Shown here one piece after another: positions 1,292 to 61,927 of a DNA stretch of 64,000 nucleotides. The position numbers were made by a program, and so were the translations under genes. The notes under the pieces were generated by a model. It worked only from the letters and a program-made list of their open reading frames with translations. It was not told the origin of the DNA and did no database searches. Origin of the DNA: a virus (Duplodnaviria; Caudoviricetes); the IMG/VR virus record IMGVR_UViG_3300033066_002329, positions 1 through 64,000 of that record, one strand, 5' to 3'. How positions within the stretch are numbered: the stretch's first letter is position 1; each line of letters begins with the position of its first letter.

Positions 1292-1881
1292 TAACTATTC
1301 AATTTAAATAAACATACACCAACAGCCTTCATGTCTGCAGGCAATTTATCAAATGCATTTTTAAATGTGCTACCAGATGTAATAAAATCATCCATAACAC
1401 ATACAACATTTGTTCCTGTTAGGTCAACATCCAAGTGAAACAAATCACTTATTTTATCTCTGTCTGCTATTTGCAAAGACCTCATTTTGAATGATGGGTC
1501 CAATTTCTTAAACCCATTCTTAATAAATGGTTTATCTATAACACTGGCCATCTCTTCAGTAACAGGACTTGTTGTTTCTACAGACACAATAACTTCTGAG
1601 CTACTCAATTCAGGTATAGAATTAAATCTCATTTGAAATTCTTGTAAAAACATTTTATATGCCTTGTGGTCAAGTTTTAACTCTTCTGATTTACGTTTAA
1701 TAGCAAGTATTGATTCTCTGTTGTTGTAGTAATCAACATTTCCGAATAAAACATATACTGGTCTTCCTGAAATTTCAATTACTTGAATTTTGTCATAAGG
1801 CTCAGTAATTTCTAATGTATTATTTGTTACATTAAAATTCTCATTAATAATTTGTCTTATATACTTTCTTAAAGAGTCCAT
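1291..1881 (-). CDS. phosphoribosyltransferase-fold protein; N-terminal LRKYIRQ motif
   Basis: VCVMDDFITSGSTF PRPP-binding loop. Confidence 0.7.
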   Translation of the reverse strand: MDSLRKYIRQIINENFNVTNNTLEITEPYDKIQVIEISGRPVYVLFGNVDYYNNRESILAIKRKSEELKLDHKAYKMFLQEFQMRFNSIPELSSSEVIVSVETTSPVTEEMASVIDKPFIKNGFKKLDPSFKMRSLQIADRDKISDLFHLDVDLTGTNVVCVMDDFITSGSTFKNAFDKLPADMKAVGVCLFKLNS

Positions 1882-4800
1882 TTTATTCCTGGTATATTCA
1901 TTATTTCGTTTCCTGCCTTACTAAATAATTCAGGAAAATTATTATATTTCAAAGTCTCCCAGTGAATAGGAGTTTTATTATTATTTAATGTAACTGCATG
2001 TGCTTGTCTACCATTAAAATTAATCATTCTACTTAATGAAGCTGCAGTTTTCCAATCTACCTTTAAAGCTTTTAATTGACCATTATCATTTATAATTCTA
2101 AAAATATTAGAATCAAGAACAACCATTCTTGCGGATTTGCCTGGCGTATTATCAACCTTTGTTCTACCTAATTCCATAAGAGAAATTATATGACAAGCAT
2201 ATAAATTTTGTAAACCATTATCTTCTTTCCCTTTAATTAAAACGATGCCTCCATAAGTCCACAAATTTGTATCATTTGATTCTTCAATCACTTCAGACTC
2301 TTTATATAATTTATCATAATCTCTATCAGTTAATCCAAAATCAATTAAAACTAATTCTTCGCCACCATCTCTCTTAACAACTCCATAAGATGAAATTTGC
2401 CCTAAATCTCCAGCTAATGCATCTGTTCCATCCATAAATTCTCTAAGAGAATCTACAAATGAATCATTATATAATCTATCAAGTAAAGGTTTTTGTAAAA
2501 AATATTTTGCCTTTCTGCCATTGTTTTCATCTTGATGATTTATTAAGTATTTTGCAACATCTTCTAAATTAAATGTAGTTAGCATTCTAAATTCAGACTT
2601 ATTAATAGGTCTTGCAAGCTCCATTTCTACCCACAAACCATCTGGATGTGAATCAAAAACTTGAGCAAGAATATTAGAGAAATATGTATGATTTCCTCTA
2701 TCTATTTCTGTATCATTTTGAGTTATACCCTTAGCGTTCTTAGCAAGTTTCAAGACCTTGTTGTCATCAATTTGATAAACTATTCTTGAAGACCCTGAAC
2801 CAAGTCTTTTTAAATTAGCATTGCAATAAGCAACTCTTTCTTTAAATGTCTTAAGAGACTTAAAATGTTCCATATCGAATGAAGAAGGATAATCTTCTTG
2901 AATATTTTCTTCTATTTGTTGACTTTCTATTGCACGTTCATAATAATCAATTAATCCATTCTCTGTTGCAAAATACATTATATTCTCAGGCGCAAAATTA
3001 ACCGTTTCTCTACCTTTAATTTCAATACCATCATAGCCAAGTTTAAGCATTTCTTTTGATATAGAAGTATTTTGTGCAAACTCTCTTGAGTTCTTATAGT
3101 TCTTAAAAATCAAATTTTGTTGAATCCATATTTCTGCAAGATTTGTATCTCTGAAAACCATAGGATTTTTTGGTTTGCCATTAACTACAAAATAAAGTTT
3201 TCCATATTGTTTTGCCATCTTCATATTACTAAGCGGCGCCATATACAAACCTTCTCCGAATCTTGCACCTGAACCATTTTCAGTATCTAATGTACCATCA
3301 GAAGATATTCCTCTAACCATTACATTTTTTCTCTTCCATTTTCTATAATCATCAAGACTATTAGAAAATGCTTCTTGGACCATTCTTCTTGCTTCGGCAA
3401 GTTGAGCATCTCTTGATAACACTTCTTTTTCTCTATTAATACTCTGTTGATTTTTCTTATCAAGATTATCCATTTCCTTATGCCAATAAGCAGAAACTCT
3501 TGCTACAAGCTTTTTCTTAACTGAATCTGGCATTATTCTCCAACCATCAAAATGTATCATAAAATCCTTAACGACTTCAGCAAGAGGCTTCATCGTATAA
3601 TGAAAATAATCAACTCCATCTGGAGAAGTTGCGAAGTCACCCTTTGTAAATCTTGTTTCATTTACAGCCTGAGTAAACCTTGCCCAAATTTCATGTTGAA
3701 GCTTCAAATATTCTTGATGTTTTTTCTTGTTTAATTCAGGGTTTGCATACACCGCCTGTCTTCCGTTGGCCATTGTATGTTTCTTATTATATGCTTTAGT
3801 TTTTCTTGCTTGAAATAATTTTGAATTACTTCTATAGTCATCATAAGCATGTTGTATCTCATGTTCTAATGTAGAATGAAATGCATACCACATTGTAAAA
3901 TATGCATCTCTATAATCATGCTCTTTTTCCTTAGAATAATCTTCAGTTAATTTATTATAAAAGTCACTATTTGGAAATAAAACAATTTCTCTTATTTTAT
4001 CATTATCATATTCAGGCTCTTTGATATGTGTATAATGTCCTAAAACTCCACTATCTCTTGTAGCTCTTGATACCTTAACATATATTTTTGTGTTAACTAA
4101 AAAATCTGAAAGTACTTGGAATTTTTTCGGATTTTCCTGGTACACTTCAAGGAGTCTTACAGGCATTACATAATCAATATATTGATTACTCTTTACCTGC
4201 CTTACAAATGCATCTAAGTTTACCTTTGCAAGATAAATAAGAGTTTCGTTAGCTAAATCTTTAATCTCTTTCACAGAATTATAATCTTCTGCAAGAACTT
4301 CTTCATTCACTGATTTAGATTCAAAGAATTCTCTAACAAGTTTTCTAACCTCATCCAAAGGTTCCATTTCATCTGACTTTGTGTGATTAATAACTTTTAC
4401 AACTCTATCACTAAAAGCAACATATACATTACCTTCAAGCCAAGCTGTTTGACCAATTACACCATTAACATTACAAAAATTGTAAAGAAATTCTGATGCC
4501 TCTTTTTTACCTCCAAGAATAGCCTCTAAATATTGATAAAGACTATCCATTGTCCATAGACCATACTCTTGAATTTCATTTTGAAATTGCTCAGCGCTAT
4601 CTTCATGTTTAGTTTTAATTAATGCATTATAAACATCTTGTGCAAGACTTTCTGAAATTTCTGAATCCCATTCATAAAATGAATCTAAACCTATCAATTT
4701 AACTTCATAGATATTAAAACCAGCATCTTTAAGTTTTCCTATAGATAATTCCTTGGCATATTTTAAGGCTGTACTTGGACTATCTGTAAAATAAAATCCC

Positions 4801-4898
4801 CAACCAAATTTAGAACGAGAATCTCCACTGCCAACTTTTGATAAATCAAAATGGTCAAATTCATAAGGAGAGCCGTGATAAAAATTTTCTAAAATCAT
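1869..4898 (-). CDS. polyvalent protein: ART-like + HExxH metallopeptidase + second ART-like + kinase-like domain
   Basis: FYHGS...GFYFT; LEHEIQHAYDD; VRG...GLYM; LGSGSSRIVY...VLKLAK...LIDFG. Confidence 0.6.
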   Translation of the reverse strand: MILENFYHGSPYEFDHFDLSKVGSGDSRSKFGWGFYFTDSPSTALKYAKELSIGKLKDAGFNIYEVKLIGLDSFYEWDSEISESLAQDVYNALIKTKHEDSAEQFQNEIQEYGLWTMDSLYQYLEAILGGKKEASEFLYNFCNVNGVIGQTAWLEGNVYVAFSDRVVKVINHTKSDEMEPLDEVRKLVREFFESKSVNEEVLAEDYNSVKEIKDLANETLIYLAKVNLDAFVRQVKSNQYIDYVMPVRLLEVYQENPKKFQVLSDFLVNTKIYVKVSRATRDSGVLGHYTHIKEPEYDNDKIREIVLFPNSDFYNKLTEDYSKEKEHDYRDAYFTMWYAFHSTLEHEIQHAYDDYRSNSKLFQARKTKAYNKKHTMANGRQAVYANPELNKKKHQEYLKLQHEIWARFTQAVNETRFTKGDFATSPDGVDYFHYTMKPLAEVVKDFMIHFDGWRIMPDSVKKKLVARVSAYWHKEMDNLDKKNQQSINREKEVLSRDAQLAEARRMVQEAFSNSLDDYRKWKRKNVMVRGISSDGTLDTENGSGARFGEGLYMAPLSNMKMAKQYGKLYFVVNGKPKNPMVFRDTNLAEIWIQQNLIFKNYKNSREFAQNTSISKEMLKLGYDGIEIKGRETVNFAPENIMYFATENGLIDYYERAIESQQIEENIQEDYPSSFDMEHFKSLKTFKERVAYCNANLKRLGSGSSRIVYQIDDNKVLKLAKNAKGITQNDTEIDRGNHTYFSNILAQVFDSHPDGLWVEMELARPINKSEFRMLTTFNLEDVAKYLINHQDENNGRKAKYFLQKPLLDRLYNDSFVDSLREFMDGTDALAGDLGQISSYGVVKRDGGEELVLIDFGLTDRDYDKLYKESEVIEESNDTNLWTYGGIVLIKGKEDNGLQNLYACHIISLMELGRTKVDNTPGKSARMVVLDSNIFRIINDNGQLKALKVDWKTAASLSRMINFNGRQAHAVTLNNNKTPIHWETLKYNNFPELFSKAGNEIMNIPGIKWTL

Positions 4899-4966: not shown

Positions 4967-5647
4967 TTATTTTTTTAACAATTCAAGTTTACCCTTCATA
5001 AACTGTTTTAGACTTGTCTCCTTGCCTGTTTCATGGTCAATAACCCTATCATCTTTCTGACGGTAAGTTCGCTTCTTATCAGACCTCTCTCCACTTCCAA
5101 TTTGAGAATTTCTTTCCTCAGAGGATTCTTCTTCATATCCAGTCCTATAAAAATTATTTACCCTCTTAGTTATTTCCTCTAATGCTTCTTCCTTATTTTT
5201 ATGTTGGTGCCTTCCATCTCTAACAACCTTAATGCCAGTTGAAATGTGGGTAATTACAACACAAGAATCTGTAGTATTTTTATGTTGACCACCATTTCCT
5301 GTTCCACGTGTTGTTTCAATTTTAAGTTCTTCTGGCCTAATAACAATATTTTCATATTGTTTATTTTCCAATACAGCAACTGTTATTGTTGATGTATGAA
5401 CTCTTCCCTTACGTTCTGTTGGAGGTATTCTTTGCCATCTATGGCCACCAGCCTCATTTTTAAAATAATCTTCTACTCCATCTCCAGTTAGTCAGATAGA
5501 TACAAGACCTTCTTTTCAGTGTTCGTTAGACACAATGAAGTTATTATTTTTGGCTGCTTTGATATACATTGCAGCCATGTCCTTTACAAGGAGTTTTGAA
5601 TCTTCACCGCCTTCAGCGCTTCTGATTTCTAATACGATTTTTTCCAT
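4967..5647 (-). CDS. prfA: class I peptide chain release factor, RF1-like, lacking domain 1; two in-frame TGA codons (5516-5518, 5492-5494)
   Basis: Manual translation MEKIVLEIRSAEGGED...EH*KEGLVSI*LTGDG...GGHRWQRIPPTERKGRVHTST joins in frame to the GGQ-containing ORF 4967..5371; PxT motif. Confidence 0.9.
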
Positions 5648-5654
5648 AACTGTT

Positions 5655-6569
5655 TTATTTATTATTTGTAAATATACTACTTTTTTCTAATACTTCAAAA
5701 ATATTATCACAATATTTTATTCTAATAAGTTCAATTTGTTTATCTTTACAATATTCATTTTTAATTTTATCTCGCTTTTGGATATCTTTAAAAGCCTTTT
5801 CTCCTCCCCATTTTTCTATAACTTCAAAATGCTGTCTCCCATCAAATTCAATACAGATATTTTTATCTGGTAAATAAAAATCGAAAGAAAGTTTATTCAT
5901 GTTTTTACAATCTGAAAAGGAATATTGACTTTCATAAGTGATTTTATTTTTAATTAAAAAATTTCGTACTTCTCTTTCACCTTTTGATTCTTTACAAATT
6001 GGACAACCATTTCCCTGTAAGTGATATTTTGGTTTTTGAAAAAAACTACCATGTATTTTACATCTTATTTCTATTTTAGTATGTTGATTTACATACTGAG
6101 AACAGTATGTAAATCTATCTCCATGAATTTTTAAAGCTTTATCAATAAAAATATTATTGTTATGTAAATGAGAACTTGAACTTGCTAATCTTCCACAAGC
6201 AGGACATCCTTTTCCGCTTAAGTGGTCATGTGGACTTTGCAAAAAAGAGTCGTGTAATGGACATTTAATTATAACTTTAGATTCATTATTTATGTATTCT
6301 GCTTTAGAATAATCATATTTTTCACCATGAATTTCAACAACCTTTTCAATGAAATATTTTGTATTTAACTTTCCTGTTCCAGAACAAATTGAACAGCCTT
6401 TTGTATTAATATGGTCATGATAGCGCTGTAAGAATTCTCCATGCTCTGGACAAATAATAGTAATTTTTTGTAAAGAATTTATATATTTTACTTTCGAATA
6501 ATCATACTTATTTCCATGAACTTCTTTACATTTAAAAACTATTTCTGAAGTTGTTAATTTTTTTGCCAT
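5655..6569 (-). CDS. putative homing endonuclease (CPxHG Zn-ribbon repeats + PD-(D/E)XK domain)
   Basis: Repeated C..HG.F.Q....H....GC..C; FDFYLP...IEFDGRQHF. Confidence 0.8.
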   Translation of the reverse strand: MAKKLTTSEIVFKCKEVHGNKYDYSKVKYINSLQKITIICPEHGEFLQRYHDHINTKGCSICSGTGKLNTKYFIEKVVEIHGEKYDYSKAEYINNESKVIIKCPLHDSFLQSPHDHLSGKGCPACGRLASSSSHLHNNNIFIDKALKIHGDRFTYCSQYVNQHTKIEIRCKIHGSFFQKPKYHLQGNGCPICKESKGEREVRNFLIKNKITYESQYSFSDCKNMNKLSFDFYLPDKNICIEFDGRQHFEVIEKWGGEKAFKDIQKRDKIKNEYCKDKQIELIRIKYCDNIFEVLEKSSIFTNNK

Positions 6570-6660: not shown

Positions 6661-7071
6661 ATGAATATACAACTTCGAAAATTAATTAGAGAAACAATTG
6701 AATATATTGGTCAAATTAATCAACCAGAGTATTATTTAGATGATTTTTACGCAATAGATTACAATAGTGATGTAGATGAGAGTTCAGCAATACAATTTAT
6801 TCAATCTATAATAAATCAAGTTAATAATTTCACATTTCCACTCATTGTTTATAGAGGAATTAACACTAAATCTCCAAACGAAAGAGGTTACGAAAACTCT
6901 TCATGGTCATTAGATAAAAAAGTAGCTCAAGGCTTTGGAGATAAATTATTAATTGGTATTATACCAAATAAAAACATTATAGATTTAGAACAGACTATAA
7001 GAACAAGAGTAATGAATCCAGGAGAAAATGAAATTTATGTGCCTAATTCTGAAGGCGTAATAATACAATAA
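6661..7071 (+). CDS. ADP-ribosyltransferase-like protein; N-terminal LRKLIRE motif
   Basis: VYRG...SSWSLDKKVAQGF...ENE resembles the R-S-E ART signature. Confidence 0.55.
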   Translation: MNIQLRKLIRETIEYIGQINQPEYYLDDFYAIDYNSDVDESSAIQFIQSIINQVNNFTFPLIVYRGINTKSPNERGYENSSWSLDKKVAQGFGDKLLIGIIPNKNIIDLEQTIRTRVMNPGENEIYVPNSEGVIIQ

Positions 7072-7167
7072 TTAATTATTCTGCGGCACGAAGTTCAATT
7101 ACAATTGTTTTTTTCATAGCTGTTTTATTTTTTATAAATATACAACTTTTTATTCATGAAAAACAAA

Positions 7168-7863
7168 TTATTTAAAAATTTTTTCTAAAATTTCTGTTTC
7201 CTTAACCACTCTATCCCAATGAACCTTTTTAAGTTTCTTTCCCCACGCAGTATTAAATTCGATATCTTCAATAAATTTTTTTTGAGCTGGAATAAAATCT
7301 TCAAAACTTTTTCCAAATTCTTGAGATAATCCAAATACGCTTTGATGAATCCAATTATACATCATTACTTGCACAATATCCGCATCTCTAATAATCTCTT
7401 GATAAATATTTAAATCTTTCTTATCAATTACATAAGGATATTGAGTAGCATCCAATATCTCAGAAATAAATTTAAAATCTGCATCGACTTTTTCTTCTTT
7501 CAAAAATGTTTCTACTCCCTTTTTCGCTTCTTTGATATTTTTATCATCAGTAGTCTTACCTGCAGAATGATTAAAGTCATGAAAAATAGCTGCAATAAGC
7601 ATTTCTTTCATCATCTTATCTTCTGTAGTTGTTTCTTCACTAACACCATCATATACAGCCTTTGTAACAGTTAAAAGATGATTAAGATTATGATATGGAG
7701 CGCTGTTTGATTTATTATTTTTTATAATAAATTTAAAAGCTTTCTTCAAATAATCAAATTTATTAATTATCTCAATAGTTGATAAATCTTGTTTAGATGT
7801 AAATTTATTTTCAACCAATCCAGCAAGAATTGCCATCTTATTTTTTTCGTTTTCCATATTCAT
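7168..7863 (-). CDS. HD-domain phosphohydrolase
   Basis: PYHNLNH...AAIFHDFNH...DAD. Confidence 0.8.
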   Translation of the reverse strand: MNMENEKNKMAILAGLVENKFTSKQDLSTIEIINKFDYLKKAFKFIIKNNKSNSAPYHNLNHLLTVTKAVYDGVSEETTTEDKMMKEMLIAAIFHDFNHSAGKTTDDKNIKEAKKGVETFLKEEKVDADFKFISEILDATQYPYVIDKKDLNIYQEIIRDADIVQVMMYNWIHQSVFGLSQEFGKSFEDFIPAQKKFIEDIEFNTAWGKKLKKVHWDRVVKETEILEKIFK

Positions 7864-7892
7864 TTATACGATTTTAAATGTGAATAGTTACA
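7864..7892 (-). promoter_or_regulatory. ECF-sigma-type promoter TGTAAC-N16-CGTATAA (one of 11 copies)
   Basis: Exact 16-nt spacing shared with 10 other sites; abuts ATG of HD gene. Confidence 0.65.
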
Positions 7893-7895
7893 AAT

Positions 7896-7926
7896 AAAAA
7901 ACCCCCAGGTGTTACCTGAGGGCTTT
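7896..7926 (-). terminator. rho-independent terminator downstream of large ncRNA
   Basis: GCCCTCAGGT-AAC-ACCTGGGGGT + T run. Confidence 0.75.
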
Positions 7927-7944
7927 CAATTTTAAAAACTTGAG

Positions 7945-8842
7945 ATTACGGTTTTTAGTCCCGAACTTTGGTGGGATTATGTATTCCCCATTAGTCTTTA
8001 TCCAGGTATCTTGCGATACCTATTCGGTAGTCCTGATGAGCTAACGGCCATCACTCTTATCAATTGCTTCTATTCTGCAGATACTTCTCCTATACGATGA
8101 TGCCGCACCATATAAAACTTTCACTACAATCCGCCAAACTTTGTGAGTCTAAACGTTCCTAATTCAATCTTTCGAATGTTAGGATATGAAGAACCTTTCG
8201 AAGACAATCGTGTACGGGGTTTTTACTTTGTGTTATTTTAAACATAAATAGTAGCCTTCCAAGGGCAACTTTCCATCTTTCGATAAAAAGGGTTTCATAA
8301 TGCTCGCTAAGAGACGTACCCGTACAGGGTTGGCTCGGTTCCTTTTGAGAACGGAATACCACTACGCCTCTCTGTAGATGCTGACCGCATCCCACTAATT
8401 AATTTTATACTCTCCATTTGCATCATCCCGTCAAAGATAGCCTTAAATGGTGACGTAAGTATAAAACCTTTTTGACTTATAGCACTTGCCTTGCCTGACT
8501 TGCACAATAAATCTCGACTTTCTTATTTAGATATCCCTATCCTCAACACCACGTCATTATACATGATGTATTTCTCTCATCCATTAAGACATTGAGAAAT
8601 ATACTTATCTTTTGCTTGGTTGTCCTATCCAATGTATTACTACACTGACAAGGCGGAAGTTTGCAAACTCCCCTTTATTCACCATTACTGGGTTTATCTT
8701 TCCCCAGATAATTCCTCTTTCGAGAAACTATCTGTTGAGCCACCTTACGATGACTCAGGACATTGTATAACCTTTCGACTATACCAGGCCCCATGCGACC
8801 TGAATTTTTTTCAATATTTTAAAGAACGTTTCGTTTAATTTT
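7945..8842 (-). ncRNA. large (~0.9 kb) structured non-coding RNA, GOLLD/ROOL-like candidate
   Basis: GC-richer, no credible ORF, many GNRA-capped hairpins, own promoter and terminator, next to tRNA-like genes. Confidence 0.65.
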
Positions 8843-8848
8843 CTTTTG

Positions 8849-8880
8849 CAAATATATGATGACTTTCATCCAAATGCAAA
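8849..8880 (-). promoter_or_regulatory. Bacteroidota primary-sigma promoter TTTG-N20-TATATTTG
   Basis: Matches the -33 TTTG / -7 TAnnTTTG consensus. Confidence 0.75.
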
Positions 8881-8948
8881 TTTATTTTTGTTTTTTTTCT
8901 ATTTTTTTTATAACTAACTGTAAATCAAATAGAAAAAATAATAACGTC

Positions 8949-9030
8949 TGGTAATGGAGGACAACTCATTTCACTTATCCACATTTTTGCGAACATGGTG
9001 CTACTTTACTCTGTCCTTTATTCACTACCA
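8949..9030 (-). ncRNA. small structured RNA candidate
   Basis: Terminal stem TGGTAGTG/CATTACCA and inner stem AGGACA/TGTCCT. Confidence 0.4.
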
Positions 9031-9054
9031 ATATTTTAAAGAACTTATTAAAAA

Positions 9055-9187
9055 AAAGCCACAAGTAAAGCGTAGTGCAAGCGTCTCATGGACTCCTACT
9101 TTTTTCGATACTGATTTTGCATGTCCATCCTTCCTATTTTGTCTGCGCTATTTAAGGACCACCAAAGGCGATTGAACACGTAGCTTT
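9055..9187 (-). ncRNA. rod-like structured RNA candidate
   Basis: AAAGCTACG/TGTGGCTTT terminal stem; ATGGAC/GTCCAT inner stem. Confidence 0.35.
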
Positions 9188-9195
9188 TTAAATTT

Positions 9196-9216
9196 GCCTC
9201 CCAGGAGGGGTTCGAA
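9196..9216 (-). pseudogene. isolated 3-prime tRNA fragment (T-loop + acceptor strand)
   Basis: TTCGAAC-CCCTC-CTGGGAG-G at edge of endonuclease gene. Confidence 0.45.
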
Positions 9217-9247
9217 AATTTATTTTATATTTATATATAAATTATTT

Positions 9248-9928
9248 ATGAAATTACTTTACACAGAACAACAGTTTATACAAGCAAGAGGAAAAGAAGA
9301 ATTACCTTTAAAATGCTATTGTTGTTCAAAAACTTTTTATCTATCAAAAAAAAGAATTAAAGATTGTCTTAATCCTAAAGAAAATAGACAAGGAAAATAT
9401 TGTTCTCCAAAATGTCAATCCGATTCTACAATCAAATATTCAATTTTAAATTGTTTAGTGTGCAAAAAAGAATTTAAAAAAACGCAATCTGAAATTAAAA
9501 AAACTGTATCAGGTAATCATTTTTGCTCTAAATCTTGCTCAGCAACTTATAATAATACTCATAAGACAACTGGCACAAGACGCTCAAAACTGGAAAAATA
9601 TCTTGAAGAACAACTTATCACTCTTTATCCAAATCTATCTATTGATTTCAACAAAAAAGATACAATCAATTCTGAACTTGACATTTATATTCCATCGCTA
9701 AAACTTGCATTTGAACTAAATGGTATATATCATTATGAGCCAATTCATGGCCAATGTAAATTAAGTCAAACACAAAATAATGACCAACGCAAATTTCAAG
9801 CTTGTGCAGAAAATGGTATTTCACTATGTATTATAGATACCTCTAAGCAAAAGTACTTTAAAGAAAGTACCAGCCAAGAATTTCTAAATATCATAATTAA
9901 TATCATAAATAATAAATCAAAGAACTAA
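9248..9928 (+). CDS. PD-(D/E)XK homing-type endonuclease antisense to tRNA cluster; paralog of 41940..42605
   Basis: Cys-rich N-terminus; RRSKLE...ELDIYIPSLKLAFELNG; likely start ATG 9248. Confidence 0.8.
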   Translation: MKLLYTEQQFIQARGKEELPLKCYCCSKTFYLSKKRIKDCLNPKENRQGKYCSPKCQSDSTIKYSILNCLVCKKEFKKTQSEIKKTVSGNHFCSKSCSATYNNTHKTTGTRRSKLEKYLEEQLITLYPNLSIDFNKKDTINSELDIYIPSLKLAFELNGIYHYEPIHGQCKLSQTQNNDQRKFQACAENGISLCIIDTSKQKYFKESTSQEFLNIIINIINNKSKN

Positions 9929-9929
9929 G

Positions 9930-10003
9930 CTCTCCTGACAGGACTCGAACCTGCAACCTCTGATGTTAGGGCACCAGCCGTCTACCAGTTGAAATACAGG
10001 AGA
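9930..10003 (-). tRNA. atypical tRNA-Arg(CCT)-like, 8-nt anticodon loop GCCCTAAC
   Basis: Acceptor TCTCCTG/CAGGAGA; T-arm GCAGG TTCGAGT CCTGT; weak D-stem. Confidence 0.55.
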
Positions 10004-10011
10004 ATAATTTT

Positions 10012-10063
10012 AAACCTCCGAGGTTAGGCGCCCCAGCATTCTGCCAGTTGGAACTACAAGGAG
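10012..10063 (-). pseudogene. 5-prime half of tRNA-Arg(CCT), T-arm missing
   Basis: CTCCTTG TA GTTC...GAAT, anticodon loop CGCCTAA, then AT-rich spacer. Confidence 0.55.
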
Positions 10064-10076
10064 AGATTATTTAAGA

Positions 10077-10199
10077 ACGCTACAAAAAGAAGACTAAACG
10101 TAGGATTCGAGTCATGAACTCCCTACCTACATTTCTTCATGATTAACAATCATTACTCCCGTATTAGTTATTTTTCGGTAGTTTAGTCATCTGCATGCA
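10077..10199 (-). ncRNA. structured RNA candidate just downstream of ECF-type promoter
   Basis: GACTAAAC/GTTTAGTC, GTAGG/CCTAC and TGATT/AATCA stems. Confidence 0.4.
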
Positions 10200-10208
10200 G
10201 TTATCAAT

Positions 10209-11133: not shown

Positions 11134-11436
11134 ATGTTTGTAAAAGCATACCATATTTCACATAGAAAAAATAGAGATTCTATTTTATCCAATGGCTTAT
11201 TGCCAAAAAGTAAGGATTCTGGAATAATACAATATCCACCAAGCATATTTCTATCTTTAAGCACACAAGATTTAGGTTATGATTTTGTTGATTATGTAAA
11301 TGTTGATTGTTGGGAATTTGAGGTTGATTCTGAAAAAATAAAGCCAGATTTATTTTCTGGCTCTACTAATCATTTTTATACTACAGAGAGAATATCTCCT
11401 GAAAAATTATCTCTTAACGAACTTTTTTCTGTTTAA
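11134..11436 (+). CDS. small ADP-ribosyltransferase/Tpt1-like protein
   Basis: AYHISHRKNRDSILSNGLLP...IFLS. Confidence 0.5.
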   Translation: MFVKAYHISHRKNRDSILSNGLLPKSKDSGIIQYPPSIFLSLSTQDLGYDFVDYVNVDCWEFEVDSEKIKPDLFSGSTNHFYTTERISPEKLSLNELFSV

Positions 11437-23065: not shown

Positions 23066-23098
23066 CAAAGATATAAAAAAGTTTCACCTAAATGCAAA
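23066..23098 (-). promoter_or_regulatory. Bacteroidota primary-sigma promoter TTTG-N21-TATCTTTG for leader/tRNA operon 1
   Basis: Consensus match. Confidence 0.75.
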
Positions 23099-42913: not shown

Positions 42914-42945
42914 CAAATATATAAAAGGTTTCAATTAAATGCAAA
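42914..42945 (-). promoter_or_regulatory. Bacteroidota primary-sigma promoter TTTG-N20-TATATTTG for leader/tRNA operon 2
   Basis: Consensus match. Confidence 0.75.
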
Positions 42946-61021: not shown

Positions 61022-61927
61022 TTATAAACCATATTTTACATTCAATCTTTTTAACTCAGCAAATAACTGCATTGTTATTTCAAAAGTATCCGAACTTGAA
61101 GCATCTAAATTAGATAAAAATAAAGTCCATTCAGCTATAAATTCACTATAAGAAGAAATGTTTTTATCTAAATTTTCAATGTATTCGAATACTGTTTTAG
61201 TTAAATAGTCGTCAAATATAATTTTTTTACCTTTTAATGCAAATTCTTTTTCAGAATAAAATTTTAAAGTTTCTGAAGAATCTAAAATTTCATAATATAA
61301 TTTAACAAGTTTACCCATTCTGTTTTTTGTAGTCTCAATGGTTCTTGTATTTCTCTTTTCATCAAATACCATATGAACATGAGCATCTGAATCAAATTTT
61401 AAAAAACTTGCTCCTTCAAAGTCACCATCTTTAGTAAGTTGCCCAATTAAAATAACAACACCACCAGTTCTATCTTTCCATTCTGTTAAAACATCATAAA
61501 TATGTCTCATAGCAGCTTCTCTTGTCATTCCTTCTTTTACGAAGTCAACAGCAATTCTTTGAATAGAATCTAAGATTAAAATTTTAACATCTCCACGCTC
61601 TTCAATCATTTTCATAAATAAATTAAAATGAGGAAAGTCTTTGCTATCAGCAATAAAAGCATTTTTATGAGTAATTTCTAAACGTAAAGTTTGTTTTTTT
61701 ACCAAAGAACTTAACATCTCTCTTGAGTAAAAAGCTGAAACATGGTCTGAAATAAGAGATTGTATTTTTTTACAAAGAGTTGTTTTACCAGCCCCTGAAG
61801 TACCAGTTAAAAATATTAAATTAGCCCATTCAATACCACCTTGTGTAGAAAATAAGTTGTCTAATTTTTCATCTCCAGTTCTTACTGCTGCTACTGAGGA
61901 TAATTCAACGTCTTGATAATTTTTCAT
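61022..61927 (-). CDS. RadA/Sms-like P-loop ATPase
   Basis: TGDEKLDNLF..GGI; GTSGAGKTT; ILDSIQ; KNRMG. Confidence 0.75.
   Translation of the reverse strand: MKNYQDVELSSVAAVRTGDEKLDNLFSTQGGIEWANLIFLTGTSGAGKTTLCKKIQSLISDHVSAFYSREMLSSLVKKQTLRLEITHKNAFIADSKDFPHFNLFMKMIEERGDVKILILDSIQRIAVDFVKEGMTREAAMRHIYDVLTEWKDRTGGVVILIGQLTKDGDFEGASFLKFDSDAHVHMVFDEKRNTRTIETTKNRMGKLVKLYYEILDSSETLKFYSEKEFALKGKKIIFDDYLTKTVFEYIENLDKNISSYSEFIAEWTLFLSNLDASSSDTFEITMQLFAELKRLNVKYGL

Follow-up and report, generated by a model that had tools for sequence, protein, structure and literature searches.

The stretch of DNA analyzed here (the window, 64,000 nucleotides of an IMG/VR virus record that totals 89 kb and has a CheckV completeness of 29%) comes from a phage, carries 18 tRNA genes and contains, on its minus strand, a compact non-coding unit extending from position 8880 to position 7890. 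This unit comprises a promoter, a boxA-like element in the leader, an RNA body of 864 nt made of two domains (together 8802-7937), and an intrinsic terminator. These features, their internal landmarks and the surrounding genes are listed in Table 1.

Table 1. Features of the non-coding unit and its neighborhood (window positions; empty cells where nothing is given).
Feature	Position	Strand	Basis or remark
Polyvalent protein, 1009 aa, with ART-PolyVal ADP-ribosyltransferase domain	1869-4898	minus	GOLLD neighbor
RF1-like gene	4967-5647	minus	~2.5 kb downstream of GOLLD
HNH homing endonuclease (phrog_559)	5655-6569	minus	GOLLD neighbor
Phosphohydrolase (phrog_16069, weak PDEase_I hit)	7168-7863	minus	27 nt after terminator
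Intrinsic terminator	7890-7927	minus	Terminator search; hairpin 7927-7897, T-run to 7890
GOLLD 3' domain	7937-8372	minus	Rfam RF02032, alignments with other GOLLDs
GUAAUCUCA	within 7949-7937	minus	3'-terminal motif
GGGGAA-N3-AUAAUCCC	7989-7973	minus	3'-terminal motif
P21 hairpin GGUGCGGCAUCAUC	8109-8096	minus	L21b-like
Long-range helix	8210-8200 with 8070-8061	minus	Model positions 131-141 with 289-298, pseudoknot-annotated
Linker of 3' domain	about 8310-8211	minus	Poorly conserved
GOLLD 5' domain, ~430 nt	8373-8802	minus	Landmarks, model R1, MFE
GAUGCAAAUGG	8424-8414	minus	Within 5' domain
Core end (UUGAG, helix c, AAUAAGAAAG)	8546-8518	minus	Three-helix core 8602-8518
Core helix b	8568-8547	minus	Three-helix core
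Core helix a	8602-8569	minus	Three-helix core
AUAAAC-hairpin-AUAAAG	8697-8673	minus	Common to most GOLLD lineages
AGAUAAAC-[CCA GUAA UGG]-UGAAUAAAGG	8699-8672	minus	Conserved 5' motif
Hairpin H4	8733-8706	minus	GNRA, lineage-specific
Hairpin H3	8756-8737	minus	GUAA loop, lineage-specific
Hairpin H2	8784-8765	minus	GAAA loop, lineage-specific
Hairpin H1	8802-8785	minus	First hairpin of 5' domain
boxA-like element GTTCTTTAAAA	8817-8827	minus	Perfect consensus match
Promoter, Bacteroidota sigma-A type	8849-8880	minus	Pattern enrichment, tRNA-operon copies; -33 TTTG 8880-8877, -7 box TATATTTG 8856-8849
80-nt element	9028-8949	minus	Directly after second boxA
Second exact copy of the boxA 16-mer GTTCTTTAAAATATTG	9044-9029	minus	Upstream of GOLLD promoter
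HNH homing endonuclease gene	9194-9928	plus	Between tRNA-like gene and next boxA
boxA-like GTTCTTTGATT	9925-9915		Directly after tRNA-like gene
tRNA-like gene	10003-9929	minus	6-nt anticodon loop CCCUAA
Partial duplicate of tRNA-like gene	about 10062-10010		Just upstream of tRNA-like gene

The RNA segment differs from its surroundings in composition, with 40.0% GC (8800-7937) vs. 29.4% for the whole window, which places it in the top 1.7% of equal-size windows. Internal ORFs are short (at most 78 aa) and gave no match in a Pfam search, and a coding reading of the segment was rejected on this basis. The minus strand folds far more stably than shuffled sequences, both for the 5' half (MFE z = -6.67, with 0 of 100 shuffles as good) and for the whole RNA (z = -5.75, 0 of 20). 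The original prediction of a GC-richer, structured non-coding RNA of about 0.9 kb is borne out by these properties, and the tetraloop hairpins it had quoted are all present, including H2 (GAAA) and H3 (GUAA) in the 5' domain, AGGTATC-GCAA-GATACCT in the 3' domain and several UCGAAAGA hairpins.

A primary-sigma promoter had also been proposed, and its location holds; its type is not the classical -35/-10 but the Bacteroidota -33/-7 arrangement (TTTG-N20-TATATTTG), with a 20-nt spacer and an A-rich tract upstream. The corresponding pattern, TTTG-N18-21-TANNTTTG, occurs 14 times in the window vs. 4.3 +/- 2.0 expected, a number reached by none of 100 shuffles, while the same site scored as a sigma-70 promoter gives 9 of 12 matches, no better than shuffles. 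In the published Bacteroidota sigma-A -33/-7 consensus the -7 box spans -12 to -5 (PMC9723704), so that the transcription start is predicted near position 8844. The promoters preceding the two tRNA arrays (23098-23066 and 42945-42914) are nearly copied in that of GOLLD, down to the A-tract and the spacer TTTGCATTT...TGAAA. Taken as a set, near-identical minus-strand promoters (A-tract, TTTGCATTT, TGAAA, TATATMTTTG) are observed at 8849-8880, 23066-23098, 42914-42945 and 61213-61243, and a boxA follows only the one at GOLLD. At the other end of the unit, the terminator that had been placed at 7896-7926 was recovered as a strong intrinsic terminator with a 14-bp stem (6 G-C pairs), a 3-nt loop and a T-run; it is the sole terminator-like site within 7000-10200 and begins 10 nt past the end of the Rfam match described below.

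The GOLLD family reportedly goes back to an original paper by Weinberg et al. in 2009. When the window was compared with all 4227 Rfam families (cmscan), GOLLD (RF02032) was the sole non-tRNA hit, with a minus-strand match at 8372-7937 (156.5 bits, E 1.5e-43) that is not truncated and covers positions 1-416 of the 416-position model. The Rfam model represents the conserved 3' domain only, the 5' domain lying outside of it. The score clears the gathering cut-off of 150 by only 6.5 bits, and lake-type GOLLDs typically score ~300 bits vs. 156.5 for the window RNA. Alignments of the 3' domain with other GOLLDs agree with the Rfam assignment. The long-range helix of this domain is preserved by pairing rather than by sequence, since CGAUUG(u)CUUC pairs with GAAGCAAUUG in 10 of 10 standard or G-U pairs although the sequence is unlike the consensus. 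The 3'-terminal motifs (GGGGAA-N3-AUAAUCCC and GUAAUCUCA, with AAAG also present) are invariant columns in an alignment with seven other GOLLDs. The linker within the domain is long, exceeding that of the model by ~28 nt. No match to ROOL, OLE or group I/II introns was obtained at E <= 1 within 7600-9200 on either strand, or at gathering scores across the whole window. Thus, of the identities originally put forward for this RNA (GOLLD or ROOL, or else a new class), the Infernal comparison with Rfam selects GOLLD, with the 3' half above the curated cut-off over the full model; ROOL drops out with no match at E <= 1, and a new class is disfavored both by RF02032 and by the 5'-domain model R1 (see below). 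The tRNA-proximal context that had been part of the same claim applies only loosely, as the nearest tRNA-like gene lies 1.1 kb upstream and the main arrays are at least 10 kb away.

For a broader comparison, GOLLD loci were fetched from IMG/VR and JGI metagenomes using short conserved DNA patterns and confirmed by Rfam or by an nhmmer profile, which yielded 22 distinct 3' domains including that of the window, with two loci (L138 and L139) added later. The 3' domain of the window RNA is 42-56% identical to the 21 other distinct GOLLDs, the nearest of them (54-56%) being those of L005 (a 372-kb contig), L091 (229 kb) and L025 (508 kb); the later-added metagenome locus L138 falls in the same identity range. 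Searches for closer relatives were negative along several lines. The whole RNA had no match among INPHARED phages in the distant mode of blastn; the downstream phosphohydrolase used as a probe revealed no related viral contigs, and an exact-protein look-up gave no match. A lineage-specific 3'-domain pattern retrieved nothing from metagenome or genome contigs, and a looser one retrieved only the L005 group from metagenome and viral contigs and nothing from genome contigs. Altogether, scans of viral, metagenome and genome contigs with two specific patterns and one looser pattern found no relative closer than L005, L091 and L025.

The 5' half presents a series of landmarks whose order agrees with that seen in other GOLLD lineages, from the first hairpin through the AUAAAC motif to the three-helix core. 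The conserved 5' motif is laid out as AGAUAAAC, a 3-4 bp stem with a GNRA loop and then AUAAAGG, and its stem covaries, being CCA/UGG in the window and CUGG/CCAG, CUG/CAG or UAC/GUA in other lineages. Three GNRA hairpins (H2-H4, 8784-8706) are intercalated between H1 and the AUAAAC motif. These three extra hairpins, together with the outcome of blastn, in which the 5' half showed no similarity to other GOLLD 5' domains outside the leader, might suggest that the RNA belongs to a new class of large phage RNAs, or to ROOL, and has only some motifs in common with GOLLD. The full-length RF02032 match (E 1e-43), the lack of any ROOL, OLE or intron match at E <= 1 and the conserved blocks standing in GOLLD order all weigh against such an interpretation, as does the recognition of the 5' core by a model derived from other GOLLDs. 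The same three inner core helices were found in the window, in four sequences of the L005 group and in three lake-type sequences, each folded singly. A covariance model (R1) was built from the 5' cores of these seven other GOLLDs with the window left out, and its match on the window is therefore independent: the best match in the 64 kb is at 8610-8509 (35.9 bits; E 3.4e-5, a rough value owing to a short calibration, with the runner-up at E 0.13). We therefore regard a separate class, or a ROOL, as close to excluded.

Covariation among homologs, which had been suggested as a check on the RNA, was observed for this core. In an alignment of 11 sequences (A6), which is fitted to the model so that its counts favor it, 88.4% of cells are paired vs. 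63.3% upon shuffling (0 of 500), both sides have changed in 16 of 19 pairs, and sliding the partners leaves 38-52% paired. A plain MAFFT alignment with RNAalifold recovered just 10 pairs in the 5' core, because helix lengths differ between lineages; single-sequence folds projected onto the alignment, along with the covariance model, were used for this region. As no close relative was found, H2-H4 and a 170-nt region between the conserved blocks are without covariation support. Overall, both halves belong to GOLLD, the 3' one as its 3' domain and the 5' one through the core of the 5' domain that it contains; judged by its sequence, the window RNA is a remote new member of the known GOLLD family and not a new class.

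The main departure of the 3' domain from other GOLLDs is in the P21 region, where the window RNA has a single L21b-like hairpin, identical in 13 of 14 positions to that of the marine locus L020. A hairpin with a GCAA or CGAA loop (model 234-250) is deleted, and the same hairpin is absent from four other lineages (L005, L091, L037 and L038/L040). By our mapping, which relies on position, the missing hairpin would correspond to L21a of GOLLD env-38. In env-38, L21a is located at residues 656-657 and the 3' domain starts at residue 421 (PMC12286853); the loop GC of L046 lies ~237 nt into its 3' domain, near the env-38 residues 656-657, and the GC/CG alternation described for L21a agrees with this mapping. 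Self-kissing of L21a forms bridge B8, one of the three half-shell contacts in the env-38 cage (PMC12286853), so that cage closure could differ in an RNA lacking an L21a-type hairpin. The absence being shared by four other lineages, the sequences point to a recurring one-hairpin variant rather than to damage.

This bears directly on whether the locus might be a decayed GOLLD remnant, still recognizable by Rfam but no longer caged or used. The borderline Rfam score (156.5 vs. 150), the missing small hairpin, the 28-nt insertion in the linker and an apparently singleton lineage without close relatives are features that decay could have left behind. A remnant would not, however, be expected to combine an intact and correctly placed promoter, boxA and terminator with base pairs preserved over nearly all of the 3' model and within the 5' core and with a fold far more stable than chance, and the one-hairpin form recurs in at least four other lineages (L005, L091, L037 and L038/L040), on contigs of at least 79 kb. 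Decay is thus a very unlikely explanation, and the preferred reading, to which we assign a probability of roughly 90%, is that an uncultured jumbo phage carries here a GOLLD RNA gene of full length, which is probably functional.

Additional insight into the expression of this RNA comes from its leader. Counted from the predicted start, the boxA-like element occupies about +18 to +28, at a distance of 22 nt from the -7 box upstream and of 15 nt from the first helix downstream, and it perfectly matches the published consensus GYTCTTTAANA (PMC5725501); the respective boxA words are UGCUCUUUAACA in E. coli and AUGAUCUUUGAAA in B. subtilis (PMC13753749). In the window it forms part of an exact 16-mer, GTTCTTTAAAATATTG (8827-8812), and an identical 16-mer precedes the GOLLD of L005 as well as two tRNA-like genes there. 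Of 23 distinct GOLLD loci, 22 have the core GYTCTTT shortly ahead of the 5' domain. Among loci fetched by 3'-domain patterns only, 14 of 15 carry it vs. 7% of control windows (Fisher p = 3.5e-15), these loci being related rather than fully independent and spanning about eight lineages. Directly 5' of tRNAs, a boxA 17-mer occurs in many phage contigs. Across the window as a whole, the boxA pattern shows no enrichment (4 matches vs. 2.0 expected), and the matches at 4016 and 42589, which fall inside ORFs, were taken as chance. Among the papers covered by a literature search, none links GOLLD with boxA.

The conserved position of boxA 5' of GOLLD suggests antitermination by Nus factors. A search of the 89-kb record revealed no gene for a phage NusG or NusB, so that these factors would have to come from the host. 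In the lake-type loci L013, L002 and L008 the box is preceded by a separate promoter and then by a small hairpin and is thus transcribed, in an order that matches the rrn leader; a boxB-like hairpin between promoter and boxA, present in these three loci, is lacking in the window. Another rrn-like feature, a leader-trailer helix, was rejected, the duplex energies being no better than those of shuffles (z = +0.17 for the window, mean z of 0.03 over 19 loci).

The main alternative is that GTTCTTTAAAA is not a Nus-factor site and instead signals processing by an RNase, or belongs to a phage-specific promoter, in phage tRNAs and GOLLD alike. Such a role would fit the 17-mer filling nearly the whole inter-tRNA spacer in L049 and L069, where processing sites lie, as well as the AU-rich and single-stranded character of a box that has no boxB hairpin before it in the window. 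A promoter element is hard to reconcile with the transcribed box of L013, L002 and L008, the match to the published boxA consensus is exact, and rrn operons, too, have boxA in tRNA-adjacent spacers (general knowledge; PMC13753749). We consider the alternative possible but rather unlikely, and a Nus site and a processing signal are not mutually exclusive. The reading we favor, as the most likely one, is that GOLLD and other stable RNAs of this phage are probably made by a Nus-modified RNA polymerase in the style of rRNA.

Several other elements in the vicinity of GOLLD deserve a description of their own. Upstream of the GOLLD promoter, the second copy of the 16-mer is followed directly by an 80-nt element with a 7-bp closing stem (GGUAGUG...CAUUACC) and a fold z of -4.7. 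This element, which matches no Rfam family and has a 73-aa ORF without Pfam match on the opposite strand, is possibly another small stable RNA. In L005, the place directly upstream of the GOLLD promoter is taken by an Rfam Bacteria_small_SRP element (11344-11427, minus strand; 42.3 bits vs. a cut-off of 40), and the same small SRP RNA element was seen in L091. Farther upstream in the window, ARAGORN names no anticodon for the tRNA-like gene, for which CUA is possible. Many phage contigs carry the boxA 17-mer followed, after ~10 nt, by GGTGGCAAT...AGAGTTACTTCG running into the 3' half of a tRNA-like sequence (L005 3700-4140, L044, L046, L062, L075, L076, L086 and L094), an element that may represent a tRNA leader of an unusual kind or else a tRNA that is split or permuted. 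Downstream of GOLLD, the GGQ (RF-1) domain is the only one seen in the plain ORF of the RF1-like gene, and reading its in-frame TGA codons as W adds a PCRF domain upstream (E 2e-20). Homologues with 48-60% identity are found in L005 (8052-8450), L138 (2929-3330), L091 (1-303) and L139 (5-124), at ~2 kb on the downstream side of GOLLD in L005 and L138 and in its vicinity in L091 and L139, which suggests that GOLLD and a release-factor-like gene are kept together in this group of phages.

Combining these data with the structural literature leads to a tentative scheme. Host RNA polymerase would start near 8844, and the nascent boxA would load host NusB/S10 and other Nus factors, as on rRNA operons; this loading would protect the ~950-nt untranslated transcript from Rho and aid its co-transcriptional folding until transcription stops at the terminator near 7890. 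The RNA would then fold into two domains, a "cap" at the 5' side and a "ring" at the 3' side, and, by homology with GOLLD env-38, might self-assemble into a closed cage made of RNA only. Cryo-EM has established env-38 as an empty D7 14-mer cage, with the 5' domain as cap and the 3' domain as ring (Kretsch et al. 2025; PMC12286853), and env-38 is the only GOLLD for which a closed homo-oligomeric cage is known (PMC12286853). GOLLD genes are located near tRNA islands, and their expression rises during lysis (PMC12286853). [quoted passage not shown] Conceivable but unlikely is the idea that the enlarged 5' cap and the loss of one of three bridges may result in a different subunit number or in an equator that opens more easily, with assembly chaperoned via boxA and Nus factors. 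If this were true, GOLLD cages would constitute a tunable family of containers produced by the ribosome-making machinery of the host.

GOLLD is among the largest bacterial and phage RNAs of unknown function, with a single member structurally solved, and a remote member helps to sort the essentials of the cage from its options: the 3' ring core and the 5' core are kept, the cap is changed, and one hairpin mapped to a contact joining the half-shells is dropped. The tRNA-type promoter and the conserved boxA suggest, in a form open to testing, how an untranslated RNA of this length could avoid Rho and reach its correct fold, and these expression signals tie GOLLD to the translation-related gene set of the phage. 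The window RNA may thus serve structure-function studies as a natural variant and provide a further case of a boxA leader.

A side-by-side comparison with known systems places the window RNA, with respect to GOLLD (RF02032), within the same two-domain layout of a variable 5' domain, an unstructured linker and a conserved 3' domain, with the long-range helix, GGGGAA/AUAAUCCC, GUAAUCUCA, AUAAAC-hairpin-AUAAAG and the three-helix 5' core in common; its size (864 nt vs. >800 nt for GOLLD), non-coding nature and origin from a phage with tRNA genes also agree. Differences from other GOLLDs consist of ~28 extra linker nucleotides, three extra GNRA-capped hairpins and the lack of a tRNA directly upstream or in the linker, and env-38 has both L21a and L21b, a variable feature, whereas the window RNA has only an L21b-like hairpin. 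The loci L005 and L091 share with the window the leader 16-mer GTTCTTTAAAATATTG, the presence of only one P21 hairpin, the sequence GAUGCAAA close to where the 5' domain ends and an RF1-like gene in the vicinity; they carry a small SRP-like RNA directly upstream, where the window has the unclassified, stem-closed 80-nt element. The 5' domains of L005, L091, L025 and L138 fall short of that of the window by ~90 nt and have one or two extra hairpins instead of three. ROOL (RF03087) is likewise a large phage or prophage RNA found near tRNA genes and forms an RNA-only 8-mer cage, but its sequence and secondary structure are unrelated to those of the window RNA. Finally, the rrn leader differs in its cargo (rRNA vs. 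a phage RNA) and in features not found in the window (boxB hairpin, boxC and leader-trailer helix), but it has the same boxA word, GYTCTTTAANA, placed ahead of a long, untranslated, structured RNA and repeated before neighboring stable RNAs.
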